Virus record (IMG/VR): IMGVR_UViG_3300025886_000011
Span: 10,357 to 74,356 of that record
From: a virus
DNA length: 64,000 nucleotides
Reading direction: 5' to 3' (one strand)
In this document: positions 3,874-51,511 of the stretch, piece by piece
Position numbering within the stretch: position 1 is the first letter of the stretch
Layout: each line of letters starts with the position of its first letter
Made by a program: the position numbers and the translations under genes
Notes under the pieces: generated by a model
Seen by the model: only the letters and a program-made list of their open reading frames with translations
Told to the model about the DNA's origin: nothing
The model's database searches: none

Positions 3874-4598
3874 TAGGAAATAGTGGAGATAGAGTATATC
3901 TTCAGGATAACAAAGTTATCAAAGAAGCAGGTGTTTATCCTATAAAGTTTAAACAACAAATGGATTGGTTACAAAACTGTACTCATCCTAATTTTATAAA
4001 GATTAAGCCTATTTCAGATACCTCATTTGAAATGAAAAAACACCCTACATGGTACGATAAAATCTGTGAACAGCCTTTAGTTAAATCAATTGAACAATTA
4101 GATGATCTTATTCATATAGTAAATGACTTTGATGGTTATGGTGCTGATGTAGATGTAAGATCTTATTTGGATAAATTAGAAGGGCGAACTGGTTATAAAT
4201 ATGAAGGTGAATTAAATGCAACATCTAGTTGGGGTTTTGTACACGGTGATTTAACAGTAAGTAATATCTTATATGATAATGATTTTATTTTTATTGATCC
4301 GCGAGGTACTGAAGAACAGAATTATTATGACTATGGAAAACTGATGCAATCCTTTGTAATGAAATATGAGGCCCATATATACAATGAAAGGAATTCTAAA
4401 TATCTTAAGTTCTGTAGAGAAGCAGAAAACATAATGTATGAATGGTATGATGAATATCAATTAAAATTCTTTTTAGCGGTCCACTTATTAGGAGCAGTAC
4501 CTTTCTTTGAATTAAATGAAAGATATGAATTAGCTGGGATGTTCCTTAAAAAAGGCCATGAATTATTTGACGAATTAGAAATTAAATATAGCAAATGA
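3852..4598 (+). CDS. APH/choline-kinase-like phosphotransferase (putative sugar kinase)
   Basis: Brenner motif HGDLTVSNIL followed by FIDPRG and YYDYGKL. Confidence 0.8.
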   Translation: MHTGKVLVGNSGDRVYLQDNKVIKEAGVYPIKFKQQMDWLQNCTHPNFIKIKPISDTSFEMKKHPTWYDKICEQPLVKSIEQLDDLIHIVNDFDGYGADVDVRSYLDKLEGRTGYKYEGELNATSSWGFVHGDLTVSNILYDNDFIFIDPRGTEEQNYYDYGKLMQSFVMKYEAHIYNERNSKYLKFCREAENIMYEWYDEYQLKFFLAVHLLGAVPFFELNERYELAGMFLKKGHELFDELEIKYSK

Positions 4599-9929: not shown

Positions 9930-10679
9930 ATGGAAACAAAAATTAACAAAATTGACGGTTATGAATTAAGTTCATTCGTTCGCAAATTACTTCCAATTGA
10001 CAAATTCATTTTTATGAAAATCGCTAAAGAAGGTACTGTATCTTCTGTCTATTTTCCTGAGAGAGATGCCGTAAAATTGGTTAACACACCAACCTCTGAT
10101 ATCTTTGATGCTGACATTAAAGAACCAGTAAAGGTTAGTTTTTATAACGGTACTAAAGTTATTGATGCATTAAGTCATTTTAATGGAGATGTACAGGGTC
10201 GTATTAAATATACCGAGTATGATGGAGAATTAATGGCAAGTGATTTTATTTTAGAAAATGAAGATCTTCAAATTAATTTGGCATGTACAGATCCTTCATT
10301 ATCTTTTATGGAAATGAGCAAAGAAGAAACTGATAGAGCATTTGATGTTGAATCTAAAATGTTTGATTTTGATTTACTCACAACACATGTAGATAAAATG
10401 AAATCATTATTTAACCTTGATAAAGATGAGGATATCTTTACTCTTTACATTGGAGAGAAAGGAATCAATATCAAAGGTACTTCTTATGATGCTACATTAT
10501 GTCACTCTTATGATTCAAATGTAGAAAAAGGTGCTAAGGTTGTGATATACAAAAAGTATATTAATCTATTAGACAAAGAAAATTACAAGGTAAGTGTTTG
10601 TGAAAATAAAGTAGTATTTAAATCTCTTGATACTAATACACACTTAACTGTTGCTGTTGCTATAACAGACGAGGATTAA
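9930..10679 (+). CDS. gp45: Sliding clamp (gp45-like)
   Basis: 249 aa acidic alpha/beta protein with two-domain clamp-like pattern; replication context; middle-type promoter. Confidence 0.6.
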   Translation: METKINKIDGYELSSFVRKLLPIDKFIFMKIAKEGTVSSVYFPERDAVKLVNTPTSDIFDADIKEPVKVSFYNGTKVIDALSHFNGDVQGRIKYTEYDGELMASDFILENEDLQINLACTDPSLSFMEMSKEETDRAFDVESKMFDFDLLTTHVDKMKSLFNLDKDEDIFTLYIGEKGINIKGTSYDATLCHSYDSNVEKGAKVVIYKKYINLLDKENYKVSVCENKVVFKSLDTNTHLTVAVAITDED

Positions 10680-42422: not shown

Positions 42423-45400
42423 ATGGCACTAGATCCGAAAATCGCTTCGATTAAAGCTGCAGGAACATACAGATTTGAATTTGACAAATCACAAGTAGTT
42501 AGTATTCCTGCTAATCAGACAAGATTAATTGTTGGTTTCTCCAAAACGGGACCTTTCAATACTCCGGTATTTGTACCTGACACCGCATTCTTTAAACAAG
42601 TTTATGGTGACATTGACAGAAACCTAGAAAGAAAGGATTCATTTTTCCACAGAAGCTGTTTAGCAGCATTGGAAAGAGGACCGATTCTTGCACTTAATCT
42701 ATTAAACTTAACTGCTGCCGATAAGGTAGAGTATATTAAATTTGGTACGGCTGCTACCCCTGACATTCAGGATAATGCCGGCGCCTTAGGAGAATATCAA
42801 AAAATGTACAACAGAGATAAATTCTTTTATCCTGACTCAGATGCATTCTTAGACAATGTAAATGCAAATAAACTTGACTTTAATTCAGGTACTACAAATG
42901 ATTTATTAGATTTTACCAATTTAGGTCAAAATCCAGTTTCAGTTATTGTAAGAAAGGCATCTGCCGCAAACTCTACAGGATTTAATGTAACTGCTGAAGA
43001 ATGGTATGGTGCTGCAAATGTACCAGGATTTTTAGATAAAGATAGTTTAGTATCCGACTTTTTAGTAGATGTATTTTTAATAGAAGGTAACTTTGGTGGA
43101 GACTTTGGTTCTGCAACACCGTATGAAAGGTTTGTAGCAGATCCAATTTACCAACAATATTTTGATAAAGTACAAGGATTGAAAAGAAGAGTTTTTGATT
43201 CGGATTCATCTGATACAAAAATTGCACAATTCTTTAATGAATCAGAAGTTAATGTAGTTGCAACTTATACTGCATCACTGCTTCCTAATTTTACAGACCT
43301 ATTAGGTAATAACCTTTTTATTGAAAAAGTTATTAATGCTGATACGGCAAGCACTGGTATATTCGTCGCAGTAAATGAAGATTTATTTGACGGTGATACA
43401 TTAATTGATGGTGTTGCTGGCGGAATTGATATGATAGGTCATAACCTTGAATATACTCAAGCTAATTCATTCCAGGAAGATGTTAATTTCTTATCTTACA
43501 GTGGAGCTGTTGTTTCAGATGTAAGTTATGCTGGTACAGGAACAACTCCTAATACAGTATCTGCAACAACTGAAGCTATTAATGTAACACAGTTAACAAG
43601 TGGAGATATACAAATACAAGTAGTAGGTTCTGCTGGTGATCCATTATGGGATGCATTTTCAGGCTTTACTAAAAACTCTGCTACTGCTGTAGGAACTTAC
43701 ATATTAGCAAATACTGGTACAGGAGCTAAATATGTTCCGGTAATATCAGTACAGATCGTAGGAAATACAATTACCTTATTATTATCAAGTGTTGGTGGTA
43801 TTATACCTGCTGATTTTAGTAATGTAACTGGAGCATCATATACTTATATTAACGAAAGTGACTTTGGGTTTGTAACAGATGAGGCTATATTAGCCGATAA
43901 TGCAAATGCAAATATTATAGGTGGATATGGTTCAACCTTATATAGCCAATTCTCAAACGGTACTCTTACTGATGGAGATGAAGCGGTATATGAAAATACA
44001 ATTGGTGGAATTACTACACAAGATACTTCATATTTAGTATTCAATGCTGTAGATTATCCTGCGATTCATACTGCAAGCCCAACAACGGCATTAACAACAG
44101 TTCCAATCTCAGATCCGGCTTATTACTTACCATCTGTTCAGATAACTCCTTATGAAGAAGATGGTTTTAATAATTTAACACCACATGATCAATTTACTTT
44201 AGATCCTGCTAATGGAGGTTTCTTTTTAGATACTGATGCTGATCCTTATGCTGCAGGTACATTAGGAATACAAACACTAAAAGGTGCAAACAATGTTTCT
44301 ATAGATATTATCTCAAACTCAGTTACTGAAACTGGGCTAAAGCCTAACCAAGTATTAATAGCATCTGATAATCCTGATGCTGCTGCTATAGTTGTAGGAA
44401 ACTATTTAGTACATTCTGAAGGCTCTCCTTCTGGTGTAGCTCACTCAAGGTTAACAAGAATTAATGTTGTACAAGGTGGATTAACAAATGCTGAGTTTAG
44501 TACTATTCCTGCGAACAAATCTGCATTATTAGTAACATGCCAAAGCGAAATATCAACAACAACCGCTGCAGGTATTGTTAAAGTAGAGTTATATTACCCA
44601 ATAGATAAGTGGATTGATTATTTAAATATCTTTACATTGGATGGATTTAAGTTAACTTCAACTCATGTACCTAATGGAACTAATGATAGACAAGTTGAAA
44701 TCTTAAACGGTACTTTAAATGGAACTAATCTATTTAAGGCATTAACTGATAGAGATGTAATTAACTTTAGATATATTGTAGATACATTTGGAAACGGTAT
44801 TGAAAGTGGATCTAAAGCGATCTATACAATATTGGCTTCTACTAGAAAGAATGCATTCGCAATATTAAATGCACCGTCGGCTAAAGACTTTAAGAGTAAT
44901 ACAGATCCTTCATTTAAAGATCTAACTGGAAGTTTATCATCTAGGTTTATTTCAACTGGTGGTGATCTTTCATTGAATCCTACTGTTAGATACTCATTAC
45001 CATCTCAAACACAAGGTGCGAGTTGGGGAGCATTCTATTATCCTTTTATTACTATTAGGGATTTAGGTAGAAATGTAAATGTTGTACCAGCTGCATACGT
45101 TTCAAATAACTTTATTGCAAAATATGAAAACGCTTTACCGTGGTCATTAGTTGCCGGAGTTCGTCGAGGTGTTGTAGGTGGAACTGGAGTTGTAGGATTA
45201 GAAATTAATCTTGGAAAAGAGGACAGAGAATACTTAGAACCATTTGGATTGAATCCGATTGTATTCCAAAGTGGAACTGGTCCAACAATCTTTGCAAATA
45301 AAACTGCACAGCAGACTACAAAATCTGCATTAAGTTCTATTAACTGTAGAGAGGTTGTAATTTACATCCAAGACGGTATCGAAGCAATCCTTAGAAACTA

Positions 45401-45659
45401 TCTGTTTGAATTTAATACAGCACAAACTAGATTGGAAATTAAAACACTTGCTGATAACTTCTTAGCAACGGTTCAAAATGATGATGGTGTTTATGATTAT
45501 AAAAACGTAATGGACGAAACTAATAATACTCCAGAAGTTATTGATCAAAATGTAGGTATCCTAGATACATATATTGAACCAGTAAGAGGAATGGAAATTC
45601 TCGTACAGAGAACAACCATTTTGAAAACAGGAGCTATTAGTTCAGGAAACTTCCAATAA
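42423..45659 (+). CDS. gp18: Tail sheath protein with large central insertion
   Basis: N-terminal G.YRFEFD.S and C-terminal AG.RRG, LNPIV, LS.IN.R, F..FEFN...TR, D..V.DE.NNTPEVID.N. Confidence 0.92.
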   Translation: MALDPKIASIKAAGTYRFEFDKSQVVSIPANQTRLIVGFSKTGPFNTPVFVPDTAFFKQVYGDIDRNLERKDSFFHRSCLAALERGPILALNLLNLTAADKVEYIKFGTAATPDIQDNAGALGEYQKMYNRDKFFYPDSDAFLDNVNANKLDFNSGTTNDLLDFTNLGQNPVSVIVRKASAANSTGFNVTAEEWYGAANVPGFLDKDSLVSDFLVDVFLIEGNFGGDFGSATPYERFVADPIYQQYFDKVQGLKRRVFDSDSSDTKIAQFFNESEVNVVATYTASLLPNFTDLLGNNLFIEKVINADTASTGIFVAVNEDLFDGDTLIDGVAGGIDMIGHNLEYTQANSFQEDVNFLSYSGAVVSDVSYAGTGTTPNTVSATTEAINVTQLTSGDIQIQVVGSAGDPLWDAFSGFTKNSATAVGTYILANTGTGAKYVPVISVQIVGNTITLLLSSVGGIIPADFSNVTGASYTYINESDFGFVTDEAILADNANANIIGGYGSTLYSQFSNGTLTDGDEAVYENTIGGITTQDTSYLVFNAVDYPAIHTASPTTALTTVPISDPAYYLPSVQITPYEEDGFNNLTPHDQFTLDPANGGFFLDTDADPYAAGTLGIQTLKGANNVSIDIISNSVTETGLKPNQVLIASDNPDAAAIVVGNYLVHSEGSPSGVAHSRLTRINVVQGGLTNAEFSTIPANKSALLVTCQSEISTTTAAGIVKVELYYPIDKWIDYLNIFTLDGFKLTSTHVPNGTNDRQVEILNGTLNGTNLFKALTDRDVINFRYIVDTFGNGIESGSKAIYTILASTRKNAFAILNAPSAKDFKSNTDPSFKDLTGSLSSRFISTGGDLSLNPTVRYSLPSQTQGASWGAFYYPFITIRDLGRNVNVVPAAYVSNNFIAKYENALPWSLVAGVRRGVVGGTGVVGLEINLGKEDREYLEPFGLNPIVFQSGTGPTIFANKTAQQTTKSALSSINCREVVIYIQDGIEAILRNYLFEFNTAQTRLEIKTLADNFLATVQNDDGVYDYKNVMDETNNTPEVIDQNVGILDTYIEPVRGMEILVQRTTILKTGAISSGNFQ

Positions 45660-45701: not shown

Positions 45702-46259
45702 ATGCCACTACCACATTATACCCAATCAAGGGCCAGTAGCCAAAGGTACGAACCTGTTCAGCCTAACTTATTCGAGGTGACTGTATTTTCACCACTAGGG
45801 GATGATACGGGTTTAATCTTGGAGCAAGTTAAAACTATTGGAGGTTTAAATAACTTAAACCCTTCTGTAGATGCAATCGGACAGAAATACAAATTTGCTG
45901 ATCGTTCATTTGCAAGTATGCCAGGTCAAACATTTATGGATCTGACTGTTAACTTTAGTCTTAACTTAAACGAAGCTAACGAAAATTACATTTACAATAC
46001 ATTCCGTAATTGGTACAAATTAATCTATGATCCATTGACTGGTGAAATGGGATTAAAGAAAGACTATGTAGGAAGTATGATCATTGTACAATATAACAGA
46101 GCAGGTGATATCTTTAGAAAGATTACTTGTAAAGATGTATTCCCTACTGGTCAACCTGATTTTGTAGATGAATTAAGTTATGAAACTCCAGACGCAGTTG
46201 ATTTAACAATGACTTATCGTTGTGATCACTGGGTTGAAGAAAATGTTGGGGCTGCATAA
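45702..46259 (+). CDS. gp19: Tail tube protein
   Basis: Follows sheath; PNLFEV, WYKLIYDP.TG, VFPT motifs. Confidence 0.88.
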   Translation: MPLPHYTQSRASSQRYEPVQPNLFEVTVFSPLGDDTGLILEQVKTIGGLNNLNPSVDAIGQKYKFADRSFASMPGQTFMDLTVNFSLNLNEANENYIYNTFRNWYKLIYDPLTGEMGLKKDYVGSMIIVQYNRAGDIFRKITCKDVFPTGQPDFVDELSYETPDAVDLTMTYRCDHWVEENVGAA

Positions 46260-46353: not shown

Positions 46354-46824
46354 ATGACAATCTTTAAAGTAGTTAATGAAACCGATGGAAAAGTTTATGT
46401 AGGTTATTCGATTAATGATAACCCTAACAATTTAGGGGCAGGTAAATATATTAAAAGAGCAGTTAAAGATTTTGGAACAAGATCTTTTCAAAAAACTATT
46501 CTTGAAGAATTTGAATCTGAAGAATCATTAAGTCATATAATGGACAGGCTAGAATTTTGGATAAAAAATTATAAAGCCGATAATCCTAAATATGGATATA
46601 ACGAAAGCGTACAAGAATTAATTCCACAAAAAAAGAGACTTACTAAAAAACTACAAGTTCTCTTAACACCAGAAGATGAAGATAATTTAAATTCAATCAT
46701 CATCGAAAAATCAATGGAAAATAAAACAAAACCGTTGCCAGTATCCAAATATGTAAGACAGTTAATAGTTAAACATATAGTAGAGGAAACTGCACCTGAA
46801 AAACAATTAATAAAAACTAAATAA
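46354..46824 (+). CDS. Seg-like GIY-YIG domain fused to a ribbon-helix-helix-like domain
   Basis: TIF..N..DGKVYVG, LGAG..I.RA.KDFG..F, E.WI..GYN; C-terminal KKLQVLL-helix-VSKYVRQLI. Confidence 0.7.
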   Translation: MTIFKVVNETDGKVYVGYSINDNPNNLGAGKYIKRAVKDFGTRSFQKTILEEFESEESLSHIMDRLEFWIKNYKADNPKYGYNESVQELIPQKKRLTKKLQVLLTPEDEDNLNSIIIEKSMENKTKPLPVSKYVRQLIVKHIVEETAPEKQLIKTK

Positions 46825-46826
46825 TT

Positions 46827-47831
46827 ATGAGTAGTCACGAAGACAATATTAAAAAAGAATTTGAGGCAGCTGAAGGTATAGTAGATACTAAAGCCGAGGT
46901 AAAAACAAATGAAGATGGTAAAATTACCGAGTTAGGTAAAGTAGATACTAGTAGAGGATCTGGTGTAACATCCATTGATGATCCAGAAATACAAAGAATA
47001 CAAGCATTAACAGGTTATGTTAAATTAGACTTAATAAACTTTCCTTCTGGTGGACAATTTTATAGAGAAGATTTTGAAATTCATATTAGAGCCGCGAGAG
47101 TTGGTGAGATTAGAGAATTCTCTACATTAGATGAAGAAAATATTTTAGATGTAGATGAAAAGCTAAACTCGCTTCTAGTGAACTGTACAAAAGTTATGTA
47201 TGGTAACCAAAGGGGATCCTACAGGGATGTATTAGAAGAGGATAGAATATACTTAATCTTATCTATTAGAGAGTTAACATTCAAAGAAGGTGAAAATAAA
47301 CTGATGATGCCAGTTGGAAAAAAGAATTGTAAAACAGGGACTTGTAAATCTCAAGAATCTATGGAGCTAAGAACAGGCAATCTTCAATTTAATGATAAAG
47401 ATGATTTATTAGAAAAGTATTATGACCATGAAAATAAATGTTTTACTGTTACAACTAAAAGCCACGGGTCATTAACTATTGCACCACCAACAATTGGTGT
47501 TATGAGATCTATTACCGATTGGATACGAAAAAGAGAAGAAGAAAATAAACCCTGGGATAAATCATCCTTAGCTATCTTACCTTACATTCAAAGAGAATGG
47601 AGAGGATTTAATGATAAAGAAATATTTTCAGCCGTTACAAATTTTCAAGGTTGGGATGCTAGCAAATACTCAATTATTTATAGATTGGTAGAGAAAGCAA
47701 AAATAGGAGTAAAACCGGAATTTGTATTTCCGTGTGATAGCTGTGGTGAGGAGGTCGCAGTTCCGCTCACGTTTCCCGGCGGGATCAAAGCTCTCTTTAT
47801 TATTCAAGATATCTCTTCTGAACTTTTATAA
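46827..47831 (+). CDS. gp26: Baseplate hub / tail assembly chaperone (gp26-like)
   Basis: FPSGG.FY..IRAARV.E; two Cys pairs (C..GTC, CDSC); lies between tube and tape measure. Confidence 0.65.
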   Translation: MSSHEDNIKKEFEAAEGIVDTKAEVKTNEDGKITELGKVDTSRGSGVTSIDDPEIQRIQALTGYVKLDLINFPSGGQFYREDFEIHIRAARVGEIREFSTLDEENILDVDEKLNSLLVNCTKVMYGNQRGSYRDVLEEDRIYLILSIRELTFKEGENKLMMPVGKKNCKTGTCKSQESMELRTGNLQFNDKDDLLEKYYDHENKCFTVTTKSHGSLTIAPPTIGVMRSITDWIRKREEENKPWDKSSLAILPYIQREWRGFNDKEIFSAVTNFQGWDASKYSIIYRLVEKAKIGVKPEFVFPCDSCGEEVAVPLTFPGGIKALFIIQDISSELL

Positions 47832-48081
47832 AGTACGAGTACTATTATTAGAAAAGTTGCATCTCCAGCCTTCAGAGCTGGATTTGCTTCCTTTCTATGA
47901 GTATGAATATACTTTAGAAATGTTTAATGAGATTCTCAAGGATCGTAATGACGAGGATAAACAGAATACTCAATCCTATTCGGATAAATATAATACGGAC
48001 AGCATGTCTAAGTCTATGAGCAAACAGATGAGTTCTTTTAAAGCACCATCTATGCCTAATATTAGTATGCCAAAGTTCTGA
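47773..48081 (+). CDS. gp51-like ORF with no ATG near its start, probably reached by +1 frameshift from gp26
   Basis: ISLLNFYK..LQPSEL..LPFYEYEY..L pattern in the +1 frame overlapping the gp26 end; start shown at the putative shift site. Confidence 0.6.
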   Translation, partial: FPAGSKLSLLFKISLLNFYKVRVLLLEKLHLQPSELDLLPFYEYEYTLEMFNEILKDRNDEDKQNTQSYSDKYNTDSMSKSMSKQMSSFKAPSMPNISMPKF

Positions 48082-48097: not shown

Positions 48098-51000
48098 ATG
48101 GCCGCTGTAACTCTTAAAGATTTAATGGACCCTCTAACAAAAATAGAGGCTGCTGCACAGAGCACTAATGAAAAATTAGATGCTCTTATTGCAGTTTCTA
48201 CTGGTGGAGGTGGAGGTGGTGATTTTACAAAGGAGGTTGTTAATCAGTTAGAAAAACAAACTGACTTACTTAGGGTAATAGCAAATTCTGGAAGTGATTC
48301 ATCTAATTCAAATCAAGTAGGTTTATTAATAGACGAAGCATTTGCTCAGACTCAATTACTAAGTGCCATTGAAGCAAACACATCCAGAAATCCATTAGGA
48401 GGAATGTTTAGTAAAAAGGGTGGTAAGGCTAAGAAAAGTAATGCCGGGGCTACATTAGAAGATTTAGGTCTTGGTGCAAAACTAACAGCAAAAGCAATGA
48501 TGCTGTGGTTATTAGTACCAAAGAAAGCTTTAAGTAAATTTAAAGGTTTTGTAACTTCTACACTAGACTCTTTTGAAAGTGTAAAACCTAAAAGAGTAGA
48601 AGCTGGGGCAAAGGCAGTGTCTTTAGTATCAGCAGCAGCAATGATATCGGCAAAGGCAATGATGAAGTGGCTGTTTGTACCTGAAAAGGCTGTTGATAAA
48701 TTTACAAATTACATAATTAAGTTAGATAAAGCTTTATCTAAAACTCAACCAAAGAATGCAAAGAAAGGTGCGAAAGCCTTAGGTGCAATGGGAGATTCCA
48801 TAATGAAATTCTCAAAAGCATTAGCTCTATCAGCAATATTACTTATACCTGGTATGTTAGCAATACCATTCTTAATATTATCTATGACGGTTGTAGGTGG
48901 GGCAATTGCATTATTAGGAGGTAAGAAACTTTCTCAAAGAATTGGTAGAGGAGCAAGGACTTTAGATAAAGTAGGAGATGCATTAAAATCTTTTGCAATA
49001 GGAATCGGTTTATTTGCACTTTCTACAATGTTTATTATATTAGCTCCACCTATTTTAATAGGAATGGTTGCTTCGTTGGTATTAATACCTGGTGCGATTG
49101 CAATCTTAGGTGGTAAGAAAATGTCTAAAAGAATCAGAAGAGGTGCATTAGGTCTTGCAATTTTAGGTGTAGCATTAATACCTTTTGCTTTAGGTTTAGC
49201 AATCTTTTCAATGGCTACAAAAGGTAATGGTATTGGTGATGTTCTTATTCAAGGTGCTACAATATTAGCAATTGGCGCCTCTGCTGCTTTAGTTGGAAAA
49301 TTTGGAATATCTAATATTTTACAAGGTGCATTAGCATTAGCAGTTAATGGTTTAGGATTAATGGTATTTAGTTTAGGATATGTACCATTTGCAAAAGCTA
49401 CTAAAGGATTAGGCTTAGGTGATGTATTAGTACAGTCTGGAATATTAATTGCAATAGGTGGAATTATGGCATTAGCAGGATTAGCTGTTGCTGCAACTGC
49501 AGGTGCTGCTCTCTTAGGACCTGTTTTATATGGAGCTGCCGGTTTAGCATTACAAGAATTGGCGCCTGGTTTACTTGACATGAAAAAGGTAGACTATTCG
49601 AAAAAAGATGCTGAAAATTTATCATTTACATTAGGTGCTGTTGCTGCTGCGTTTTCAGGTGTGGATCCTGAGGCAGGTTTCTTATCCAATGTAGGTAATG
49701 TATTTAGTAGAGTTGTACAAAGTGGTGCAGGTGTAGCCGCCGCTGCTATGTATGGTGCTGCTGGTTTAGCATTACAAGAATTATCAGTAGGTCTTACTAA
49801 ATTTAAGGCAGTAGGATTTACTGAAGCAGATTCACAAGAGCTTGCTGTTGCTTTAGGTTCTGTTAGCGGAGCATTCGCACAAGCAGGTGGAGAACCTGCA
49901 AGTCCTGGTGGATTATTTGGTGCAGTATTTGGAAATACATTTAGCCCTAATGCTACCGAGAGAGGTATTGATTCTGTAATGGATTCTGGTAAAGCTCTTG
50001 CTGAAATTACAAAAGGGTTGGCTGCTTTCTTAGATCTTAAGAAGAAATATAAATTAGATGCAGCTGCATTTCAAGAAGGTGGATTCTTAGCTGTATCAAT
50101 TGCAGATACTTTAGGATTCTTAAGTAAAGCGTTTGCTTCTATTGGAGGAATGGAAACTGAAGATTCTTGGGGTCCATTTAAATGGGACGAGAATAAAGTT
50201 GAAAAAGGTATTGATGCCGTTAAAGGTTCAGGTAGAGCTCTATCGGATATTACAGGTGGATTAAAGGCGTTCTTAGATTTACAAAAAAATTATGGATTAA
50301 CTACTGAATCTTTCCAAGAAGGTGGATTCTTAGCAACAGCAGTGAAAGATACATTAGGATTTGTTAGTAAAGCTTTTGGTACAATTGGAGGAATGGAAGT
50401 AGAAGATGGTTGGGGTCCGTTTAGTTGGGATGAGAATGTAGTGGAGAAAGGTGTTGATGCTGTTAAAGGTGCAGGGCAAGAACTTACTAATATTGCAACA
50501 GGATTAAAAACATTCCAAGAACTAGTAGAAAAAGAAATTGACTTTAAACCTGGCGGTAAACTTGCAAACGCTGTTACTAATTCCTTATCATTTGTATCAA
50601 CTGCATTTAGTGCGATTGGGGGAATGGAAGAAACGGATGGATGGTTTATATTTTCATGGGATGAAAACTCTGTAGAGAAAGGAATTGATGCCGTAAAAGG
50701 AGCTGGTGCAGAACTTAGTAATATTGCAAACGGGTTAAAAACATTTGCGGATATGTCTACAACAGTTGACTTCAGTAAAAAAGGTAAACTTGCCACTGCG
50801 GTTAAAAATGCCTTATCATTCGTAGGTAGTGCATTTATGAAAATTGGTGGAATGGAAGAGACTGATGGTAATTGGTTATTTTCTTGGGATGAAAACTTAG
50901 TCCAAAAAGGTATTGAAAATGTAGATGGTGCTGGTACTGCATTAACTGATATTGCTAAAGGCTTACAATCATTTGCAGATTTAGAAAATCCAGCTGCTAT

Positions 51001-51511
51001 TGCACAAAGTATAGAAACGATATTTACTTCTATAGGTGATACTTTTGTTAAGTATTATAAAGATCCTACATTTAGAAATGATTTGGATCATATGCAAGGA
51101 TTTATAACAGAACTATCCACTTATGCACAAGACGGTTCATTAGCAAAGGCTGCAACAGATATTCAATCAATCTCTAATGCTGTGAATTCTATTGATTCTA
51201 TGAAAGCTGATTCTTTTGCAAAACTATTTAAAGGTGCAGGTGAATTAAGCTCTAATGCAAAAGCATATCAACAATTAGCAGAGGCTGTTGAAGAGATAAA
51301 AGATATTATGAGTGGGCAAGGTGAAAGTTTTGGAGAGTCAGTAGGTAGAAGTATATCAGATGTATTCGGTGGCGGTGATGATAAGAAGAAAGAATCTGGT
51401 GGTATGGGTAAAACACTTGCAAGAATGAATTCTACTTTAGGAAGACTTAATTCAACTATGGGACAATTACCTGCATCAATTCAATCAATCAAAATCATAG
51501 TAGAAGATTAA
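48098..51511 (+). CDS. Tape measure protein
   Basis: 1137 aa A/G/L-rich helical protein with a central hydrophobic block and periodic W/F repeats, directly after the tail chaperones. Confidence 0.85.
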   Translation: MAAVTLKDLMDPLTKIEAAAQSTNEKLDALIAVSTGGGGGGDFTKEVVNQLEKQTDLLRVIANSGSDSSNSNQVGLLIDEAFAQTQLLSAIEANTSRNPLGGMFSKKGGKAKKSNAGATLEDLGLGAKLTAKAMMLWLLVPKKALSKFKGFVTSTLDSFESVKPKRVEAGAKAVSLVSAAAMISAKAMMKWLFVPEKAVDKFTNYIIKLDKALSKTQPKNAKKGAKALGAMGDSIMKFSKALALSAILLIPGMLAIPFLILSMTVVGGAIALLGGKKLSQRIGRGARTLDKVGDALKSFAIGIGLFALSTMFIILAPPILIGMVASLVLIPGAIAILGGKKMSKRIRRGALGLAILGVALIPFALGLAIFSMATKGNGIGDVLIQGATILAIGASAALVGKFGISNILQGALALAVNGLGLMVFSLGYVPFAKATKGLGLGDVLVQSGILIAIGGIMALAGLAVAATAGAALLGPVLYGAAGLALQELAPGLLDMKKVDYSKKDAENLSFTLGAVAAAFSGVDPEAGFLSNVGNVFSRVVQSGAGVAAAAMYGAAGLALQELSVGLTKFKAVGFTEADSQELAVALGSVSGAFAQAGGEPASPGGLFGAVFGNTFSPNATERGIDSVMDSGKALAEITKGLAAFLDLKKKYKLDAAAFQEGGFLAVSIADTLGFLSKAFASIGGMETEDSWGPFKWDENKVEKGIDAVKGSGRALSDITGGLKAFLDLQKNYGLTTESFQEGGFLATAVKDTLGFVSKAFGTIGGMEVEDGWGPFSWDENVVEKGVDAVKGAGQELTNIATGLKTFQELVEKEIDFKPGGKLANAVTNSLSFVSTAFSAIGGMEETDGWFIFSWDENSVEKGIDAVKGAGAELSNIANGLKTFADMSTTVDFSKKGKLATAVKNALSFVGSAFMKIGGMEETDGNWLFSWDENLVQKGIENVDGAGTALTDIAKGLQSFADLENPAAIAQSIETIFTSIGDTFVKYYKDPTFRNDLDHMQGFITELSTYAQDGSLAKAATDIQSISNAVNSIDSMKADSFAKLFKGAGELSSNAKAYQQLAEAVEEIKDIMSGQGESFGESVGRSISDVFGGGDDKKKESGGMGKTLARMNSTLGRLNSTMGQLPASIQSIKIIVED

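Follow-up and report, generated by a model that had tools for sequence, protein, structure and literature searches.

The 64,000-nucleotide (nt) stretch analysed here, referred to as the window, covers positions 10,357 to 74,356 of the IMG/VR record IMGVR_UViG_3300025886_000011 and comes from a T4-like phage of marine origin that has not been cultured. In its late region the order is terminase, sheath, tube, a small HNH-like open reading frame (ORF), an ORF of 334 amino acids (aa), a further ORF in the +1 frame and an ORF of 1137 aa. The 334-aa ORF is predicted to encode a hub assembly chaperone related to T4 gp26. The +1 ORF overlaps the end of this gene and its predicted product is related to T4 gp51. 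A sequence-only reading of the window had proposed that the two reading frames are joined by a programmed +1 frameshift. The comparative analysis presented here indicates that a shift at UUU CCC G (47772-47778) is the probable arrangement, which would yield both the gp26-like protein and a gp26-gp51 fusion.

The features of the locus are collected in Table 1. The coordinates given by the sequence-only reading are all correct, and translation confirms the two predicted lengths of 417 and 334 aa. The heptamer TTT CCC G specifies F-P in both frames. The +1 frame is open from 47713 to its stop at 48079-48081, and ATG, GTG and TTG are absent from it between 47749 and 47856. The earlier statement that no ATG or GTG lies near the start of the +1 part therefore stands for the region downstream of the Shine-Dalgarno (SD)-like motif. 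It does not stand for the region upstream, where GTG GTG (47743-47748) and TTG (47722) are found in the +1 frame. The distance to TTT is 16 nt from AGGAGGT and 17 nt from its GGAGG core. The C-terminus of the gp26-like protein is conserved and acidic-hydrophobic (..SSELL), and the gene ends in the codons CTT TTA TAA. The predicted fusion is encoded by 46827-47777 (317 codons) followed by 47779-48078 (100 codons).

Table 1. Coordinates of the putative frameshift locus and of the neighbouring tail genes in the window
Feature	Position	Strand	Remarks
Tail sheath gene	42423-45659	+	PF17482; phrog_34521 (2e-119)
Tail tube gene	45702-46259	+	phrog_45 and phrog_3629, tail tube
gp26-like hub assembly chaperone gene	46827-47831	+	Frame 0, 334 aa; ORF and translation
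Predicted trans-frame product P0002	46827-48081	+	417 aa if CCCG is read as one step
SD-like AGGAGGT	47749-47755	+	Core GGAGG at 47750-47754; encoded by the rare codons GAG GAG GTC
Proposed +1 slip site TTT CCC G	47772-47778	+	Conserved in two clades; rare CCC in the A site
gp51-like +1-frame part	47773-48081	+	102 codons from TTC; stop at 48079-48081
Dual-coding overlap	47773-47831	+	Last 19 gp26-like codons are also the first 19 codons of the +1 part
Tape-measure-like gene	48098-51511	+	1137 aa; identity from size and position only

The layout was compared across about 150 related contigs that represent some 20 lineages. The relatives retrieved by tblastn, at 20-50% identity, include the Lak megaphages, five other huge uncultured phages, Sphingomonas phage PAU, and phages of Tenacibaculum, Chryseobacterium and Flavobacterium. 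The gp51-like ORF lies in the +1 frame in 14 of 14 GenBank-level loci, where it is open for 20-48 codons upstream of the frame-0 stop. The same layout is found in 80 close IMG/VR relatives, in the L095 group, in the L101 and L004 clades, and in L192-L195, L197 and L198. Wherever the two ORFs overlap, the second was found in the +1 frame, and it is open for at least 19-20 codons at all loci where this was measured. This long open overlap exceeds chance. Among 51 window ORFs, 8.5% of codons coincide with a stop in the +1 frame, and only 14% of ORF ends have an open +1 stretch of at least 20 codons.

Some relatives carry the two genes separately and serve as controls. In L120-L126 and L196 the gp26-like protein keeps the same kind of C-terminal tail and the gp51-like gene has its own ATG; neither the Phe codon TTT nor GGAGG is present at these loci. 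In L193 the ATG of the gp51-like gene overlaps the last four gp26-like codons.

It is hardly credible that no recoding takes place and that the +1 ORF reflects an assembly or sequencing indel, or is an unexpressed, decaying remnant. One database protein, P0125, does carry the gp26 tail and the gp51-like domain in a single frame. Its contig, however, is labelled 4x and is ridden with indels, and its own gp26-like gene is broken across frames. Apart from this lone case, a word-indexed search for the +1 domain found no natural in-frame gp26-gp51 fusion among proteins of 229-730 aa. An assembly indel, named as an alternative in the earlier reading, is excluded by the occurrence of the same layout in about 150 independent contigs and isolate genomes. 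A decaying remnant is likewise at odds with the +1 ORF itself, which shows clean third-position variation and conserved residues, has homologs in 369 clusters and is predicted with confidence to fold.

The point at which the +1 frame is entered can be approached through the pattern of substitution. In the window clade (41 distinct sequences) variation follows the +1 phase immediately after the frame-0 stop, the first codon included. Synonymous diversity in this clade reaches its minimum for the gene in the last 13 gp26-like codons (322-334), at 0.02 compared with an average of 0.29. The 35 distinct sequences of the L004 clade show hardly any synonymous diversity between TTT and the stop, an ordinary level just upstream, and a +1 peptide that is conserved from F-P onward and varies freely before it. 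The sequences of the two clades support a dual-coding signature that starts at TTT, with the sharper onset in the second clade. Five lineages (L001, L010, L095, L110 and L198) have a +1 stop at a distance of one to four codons upstream of TTT, and L001, L010, L011 and L095 have no ATG, GTG or TTG within ten codons after TTT. The +1 ORF is conserved, open from the site, under purifying selection and without a conserved start of its own.

Entry at or near the frame-0 stop is very unlikely. It could take the form of a prfB-like CUU-U slip at CTT TTA TAA (47823-47831), of re-initiation, or of a start at ATA 47809 or TTG 47857. The CTT at 47823 is invariant, and CTT CTT TAA (CUU U followed by a stop, as in prfB) is present in about one third to one half of the window-clade sequences as well as in L001, L095 and the L101 clade. 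Gene callers also often start the ORF after the stop. The last sense codons, however, differ widely among lineages (GAA TAA, AAG TAA, TCT TAA, GAG TAA), and the invariance of CTT is explained by dual coding, as it contributes to L in frame 0 and to N-F in the +1 frame. Standalone gp51-like proteins share a conserved N-terminal motif that aligns with +1 residues 7-19 of the window (47791-47829), of which F11 is invariant. This motif is encoded inside the overlap, upstream of these entries, and the stop-proximal site, ATA 47809 and later starts are therefore rejected. With them fall the second slip site and the non-AUG start that the sequence-only reading had entertained. The suppression of synonymous change and the openness of the +1 frame, moreover, extend back to TTT. 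Translational bypass from TTA to a downstream TTA was also rejected, since the +1 phase already governs variation in the codons that immediately follow the stop.

The first site proposed earlier, TTT CCC G, is the one that the comparison bears out. Synonymous-site conservation, suggested then as a check, is complete, as TTT CCC never varies in the 41 and 35 distinct sequences of the two clades. Both the site and GGAGG are invariant in these two clades, which are independent of each other. The claim that the surrounding codons are unusual for the genome was also upheld. Across the 51 window ORFs, CCC accounts for 10 of 632 Pro codons (1.6%), and in-frame TTT CCC occurs a single time among 18,811 codons. 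ACG, CTC, GTC, GGC and GGG each make up 2-8% of their own codon family in the window, where AGA and AGG provide 85% of the Arg codons.

Among lineages the codon after TTT is CCC in most and CCT, CCA, CAA or CAG elsewhere. Five lineages have an Arg codon in this place, namely CGC, CGG, CGT (two lineages) or CGA, and never AGA or AGG. The base after TTT is C in nearly all overlapping lineages and T in L198. A UUU followed by a pyrimidine, which allows tRNA-Phe to re-pair at +1, is present at 47772. UUU_Ynn is an established site with a particular tendency to +1 slippage, and influenza PA-X uses UCC_UUU_CGU (PMC5009743). The constancy of TTT followed by a pyrimidine, with a varying next codon, points to re-pairing of tRNA-Phe from UUU to UUC as the event common to the lineages. 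The earlier suggestion that both tRNAs re-pair thus appears to hold for tRNA-Phe universally; for the Pro tRNA re-pairing would be possible only where the next codon is CCN. A rare next codon would help in many lineages, though not in all. AAA G and GGG A were considered as slip sites and rejected, as their third positions vary freely.

Signals in the RNA were sought around the site. Rfam gave no match, and RNAalifold applied to three clades revealed no shared downstream stimulator. The window clade can form a small hairpin with the slip site in its loop; this is not retained in the L004 clade. A separate 6-bp hairpin with a T-rich tail (47864-47882) lies inside the gp51-like ORF over the conserved QPSELD codons and is kept in the consensus fold of the clade. 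It is too distant from the slip site for a classical stimulator. No special tRNAs are encoded in the window or in the 77-kb contig.

The GGAGG element is the other conserved component of the site. Although its codons are rare, GAG GAG GTC (or xxG GAG GTx) has been preserved in its nucleotide sequence. The synonymous sites are nearly fixed, with GAG in 30/30 and GTC in 29/30 sequences of the window clade and in 35/35 and 33/35 of the L004 clade. GGAGG lies exactly 17 nt before TTT in the window, in L001, L095/L098, PAU, the L004, L005 and L010 lineages, Lak-C1, most of the L101 clade and L197. Spacings of 14 nt and 22 nt are found in pT24 and MaF61, respectively. RNAalifold found no RNA structure common to the clades that would explain the element.

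An SD-like motif precedes only 1 of 55 window ORFs, as compared with 10% of random positions, in agreement with the earlier remark that AGGAGGT stands 16 nt upstream of the site in a genome that otherwise lacks SD sites. The leaders of start codons in this genome are A-rich and G-poor, as is typical of Bacteroidia, and the context of the slip site is GC-rich. To judge from the sequences, GGAGG cannot be the general ribosome binding site of the +1 ORF, because L001, L010 and L095 have +1 stops between GGAGG and TTT. That GGAGG at 17 nt instead acts as a working stimulator, by pairing with the anti-SD of the elongating ribosome in phages of hosts whose ribosomes usually keep the anti-SD hidden, is a possibility that we regard as rather doubtful. 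Known SD stimulators are spaced 3 nt (prfB) or about 10 nt (dnaX) from the site. If the element did act in this way, it would represent a new geometry of SD-assisted +1 shifting, or infection would free the anti-SD, for example by altered bS21 occupancy. The state of the ribosome would then influence the proportion of gp26 to gp26-gp51.

The gp51-like ORF might alternatively be an ordinary overlapping gene with its own start inside the gp26-like gene, either at GTG 47743 or 47746 in the window or at a non-canonical codon near F-P, and with GGAGG as its ribosome binding site. We consider this unlikely. Several observations speak for it and weigh against a frameshift. The two GTG codons of the window lie in the open +1 frame just before GGAGG, and as a rule the window clade retains a GTG or ATG there. 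In PAU, an ATG of the +1 frame follows GGGAGG after six bases and precedes the site by four codons, and a second possible start (TAAGGAG, three bases, ATGATG) follows the frame-0 stop of gp93 (L003, 3800-3900). Several lineages, the 'MES..' forms, have an ATG two codons after F-P and may simply initiate there, and L192 and L195 have GTG in this position. The gp51-like protein is made separately in sister clades and in T4, so the fusion is not obligatory. Other points tell against the proposed slip or its stimulation. Common codons follow TTT in some lineages (CAA in L001, Lak and L013; CCT in L095). The window genes contain 17 other in-frame TTT CCN pairs, and the tetranucleotide alone is therefore insufficient. 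The motif is missing at the aligned place in the MA9V phages and in L012. No known +1 stimulator has an SD at a spacing of 17 nt, and the ribosomes of Bacteroidia are reportedly blind to SD sequences, although the prfB gene of Bacteroidia keeps one (PMC10798248).

What speaks against an independent start is its lack of constancy. The position of the possible starts is not conserved across lineages, and the +1 residues before F-P are unconstrained. The stops between GGAGG and TTT noted above would terminate any upstream start in L001, L010 and L095, and these three lineages and L011 have no canonical start before the conserved domain. In the window itself the GTG codons lie upstream of or inside the SD-like motif and not downstream of it. 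The genes of this genome, moreover, do not use SD sites, and their A-rich, G-poor leaders differ from the GC-rich stretch found here. The family as a whole may mix initiation and slippage, and the fusion is perhaps not essential everywhere.

Under the favoured reading, a +1 shift at UUU CCC G, most ribosomes would read frame 0 to its end, and the 334-aa gp26-like chaperone, including the conserved C-terminal tail, would result. Some ribosomes would stall while UUU, paired with tRNA-Phe, occupies the P site and the rare CCC waits in the A site. The tRNA-Phe would then re-pair one base forward on UUC, which would exchange a G-U wobble for a G-C pair, and translation would go on in the +1 frame to 48081. 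The 417-aa product would consist of gp26-like residues 1-317 and a gp51-like helical domain of 100 residues with a basic tail of the MPKF type. Both forms would share their N-terminus, as do the G and GT proteins of lambda. The two forms probably act together in the assembly of the hub and the tape measure.

The gp26-like and gp51-like labels, already used in the sequence-only reading, hold by transitive homology. The 334-aa protein of the window strongly matches phrog_36717 (4.5e-26) and weakly matches phrog_150, 'baseplate hub' (5.8e-3). It has no Pfam match even at E 10, and hhalign of the window-clade profile against T4 gp26 gave no match. Its relatives supply the link, as the gp26 family PF12322 (T4_baseplate, gathering cut-off 24.5) is matched at 39.9 bits in L101, 36.4 in L120 and 26.9 in L115. 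These three proteins are ~37-57% identical among themselves and to the window protein (48% between L101 and the window). The structure predicted for the gp26-like protein is poor, with a predicted local distance difference test (pLDDT) score of 54. A second segment of the gene, codons 78-88 (47058-47090), has the second-lowest synonymous diversity (0.05-0.08 against the mean of 0.29); no overlapping ORF, promoter-like site or terminator-like site that would explain it was found there.

Profile searches with the +1 product returned the 369 clusters of homologs mentioned above, which range from 42 to 180 aa. The gp51 family phrog_634, 'baseplate hub assembly catalyst', is matched by 18 of 89 aligned homologs (best 1.1e-7). 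The window product itself matches only phrog_8286 (9e-4), and its clade profile gave no hhalign match to T4 gp51. The helical fold predicted for the gp51-like part is good (pLDDT 82), and +1 residues 7-19 reach a pLDDT of ~90. A fold search of BFVD with this model returned nothing below E 0.09 except its own ortholog from PTm5. The gp51-like proteins of almost every lineage end in a basic M-P-K-(F/I/L) motif, in 1-4 repeats (window 48040-48078), which looks like a short docking peptide. L001, the closest GenBank relative (LR756500.1), has a second gp51-like paralog of 59 aa (4128-4307) directly after the first, with its own ATG and the motif LPYYEFEY.

Long-tailed phages characteristically carry programmed frameshifts in their tail chaperone genes, with T4-type phages having been regarded as the exception. 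The arrangement described here resembles lambda gpG/gpGT, P2 E/E+E' and similar systems of many sipho- and myophages in its place between the tube gene and a tape-measure-like gene and in its two predicted products with a common N-terminus. The gene order would fit a G/GT-type position, with the tape measure putatively identified from size and position only. The systems differ in that lambda shifts by -1 at a heptamer and the shift proposed here is +1 at UUU_C; the window overlap contains no heptamer of the form X XXY YYZ, as a -1 shift would call for. They also differ in that the gp51-like C-terminal part occurs as a free-standing gene in relatives. Homology to the G/T tail assembly chaperone families was not found, as there is no Pfam match, only 2 of 89 homologs touch phrog_9001, and the BFVD search was likewise without result below E 0.09. 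The likeness to lambda G/GT would thus be a functional parallel in which direction, site type and protein families differ. Neither product of the lambda-type tail assembly chaperones is expected in the virion (PMC5009743), and the same would apply here.

The site itself is closest to the UUU_Ynn sites of influenza A PA-X and Yersinia YopN-TyeA, with which it shares the tetranucleotide, the presumed re-pairing of P-site tRNA-Phe on UUY and, in many lineages, a putatively slowly read next codon. The +1 site of amalgaviruses is UUU_CGN, and several relatives of the window phage carry UUU_CGC, CGG, CGT or CGA, like the PA-X and amalgavirus sites. In contrast to these cases, the present one concerns a bacterial virus of an SD-less host type, a next codon that is mostly CCC, a GGAGG 17 nt upstream and the putative fusion of structural-assembly chaperones. 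The prfB (RF2) gene likewise combines a +1 slip with an upstream SD-like element. It slips at CUU_UGA, where a stop codon occupies the A site and the SD lies 3 nt upstream, whereas here the A site holds the sense codon CCC and GGAGG lies at 17 nt, so the site is not of the prfB type. In PSA, a Listeria phage (genes for capsid and for tail shaft), +1 shifts also affect phage structural or assembly genes in a Pro codon context. There the slip codon is CCC, with a stop codon or pseudoknot beside it, whereas here UUU would slip and there is no downstream structure shared between clades.

T4 gp26 and gp51 are hub assembly chaperones (PMC3004832). The proteins described here appear to belong to the same families, by transitive evidence from hidden Markov models, and their genes likewise adjoin each other near those of the hub and tape measure. 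In T4, genes 26 and 51 are divergent, lie on opposite strands and are translated separately, and gene 26 has an annotated nested product, 26'. Literature searches on frameshifts in gp26/gp51 or in the baseplate hub found no report.

If the shift takes place, the frameshift link would span a large and ecologically important family that includes the Lak megaphages and marine Flavobacteriia-type phages. It would provide a handle on the role of gp26 and gp51, as a ratio device resembling G/GT at the hub and tape measure, and add a conserved case of UUU_C +1 slippage in a bacterial virus. The locus would also offer a natural test of the action of SD-like sequences on elongating Bacteroidia ribosomes. 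A further point concerns annotation, as the gp51-like ORF is mis-started in all annotated isolate genomes inspected (PAU, MA9V, pT24, PTm1 and MaF61) and in many database gene calls. In PAU the first of the two possible gp51-like starts lies inside gp93, and the deposited start of gp94 is further downstream than both.

Several minor features were noted at the window locus and in its relatives. The 1137-aa ORF weakly matches phrog_788, 'tail protein' (2.8e-3), and is without a Pfam family. The HNH-like ORF between the tube and gp26-like genes (46354-46824) encodes 156 aa and resembles homing endonucleases (phrog_314, 9.8e-10). Relatives such as L101 have only a 62-aa ORF in this place, which suggests that it is a mobile insertion. 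In Lak-B5 (L006, 2189-2347) the +1 ORF is interrupted by a TAG where Lak-C1 reads on, consistent with Lak phages presumably reading TAG as a residue. In L120-L126 and L196 a strong intrinsic terminator follows the gp26-like gene, and one or two unrelated genes can separate it from the gp51-like gene.

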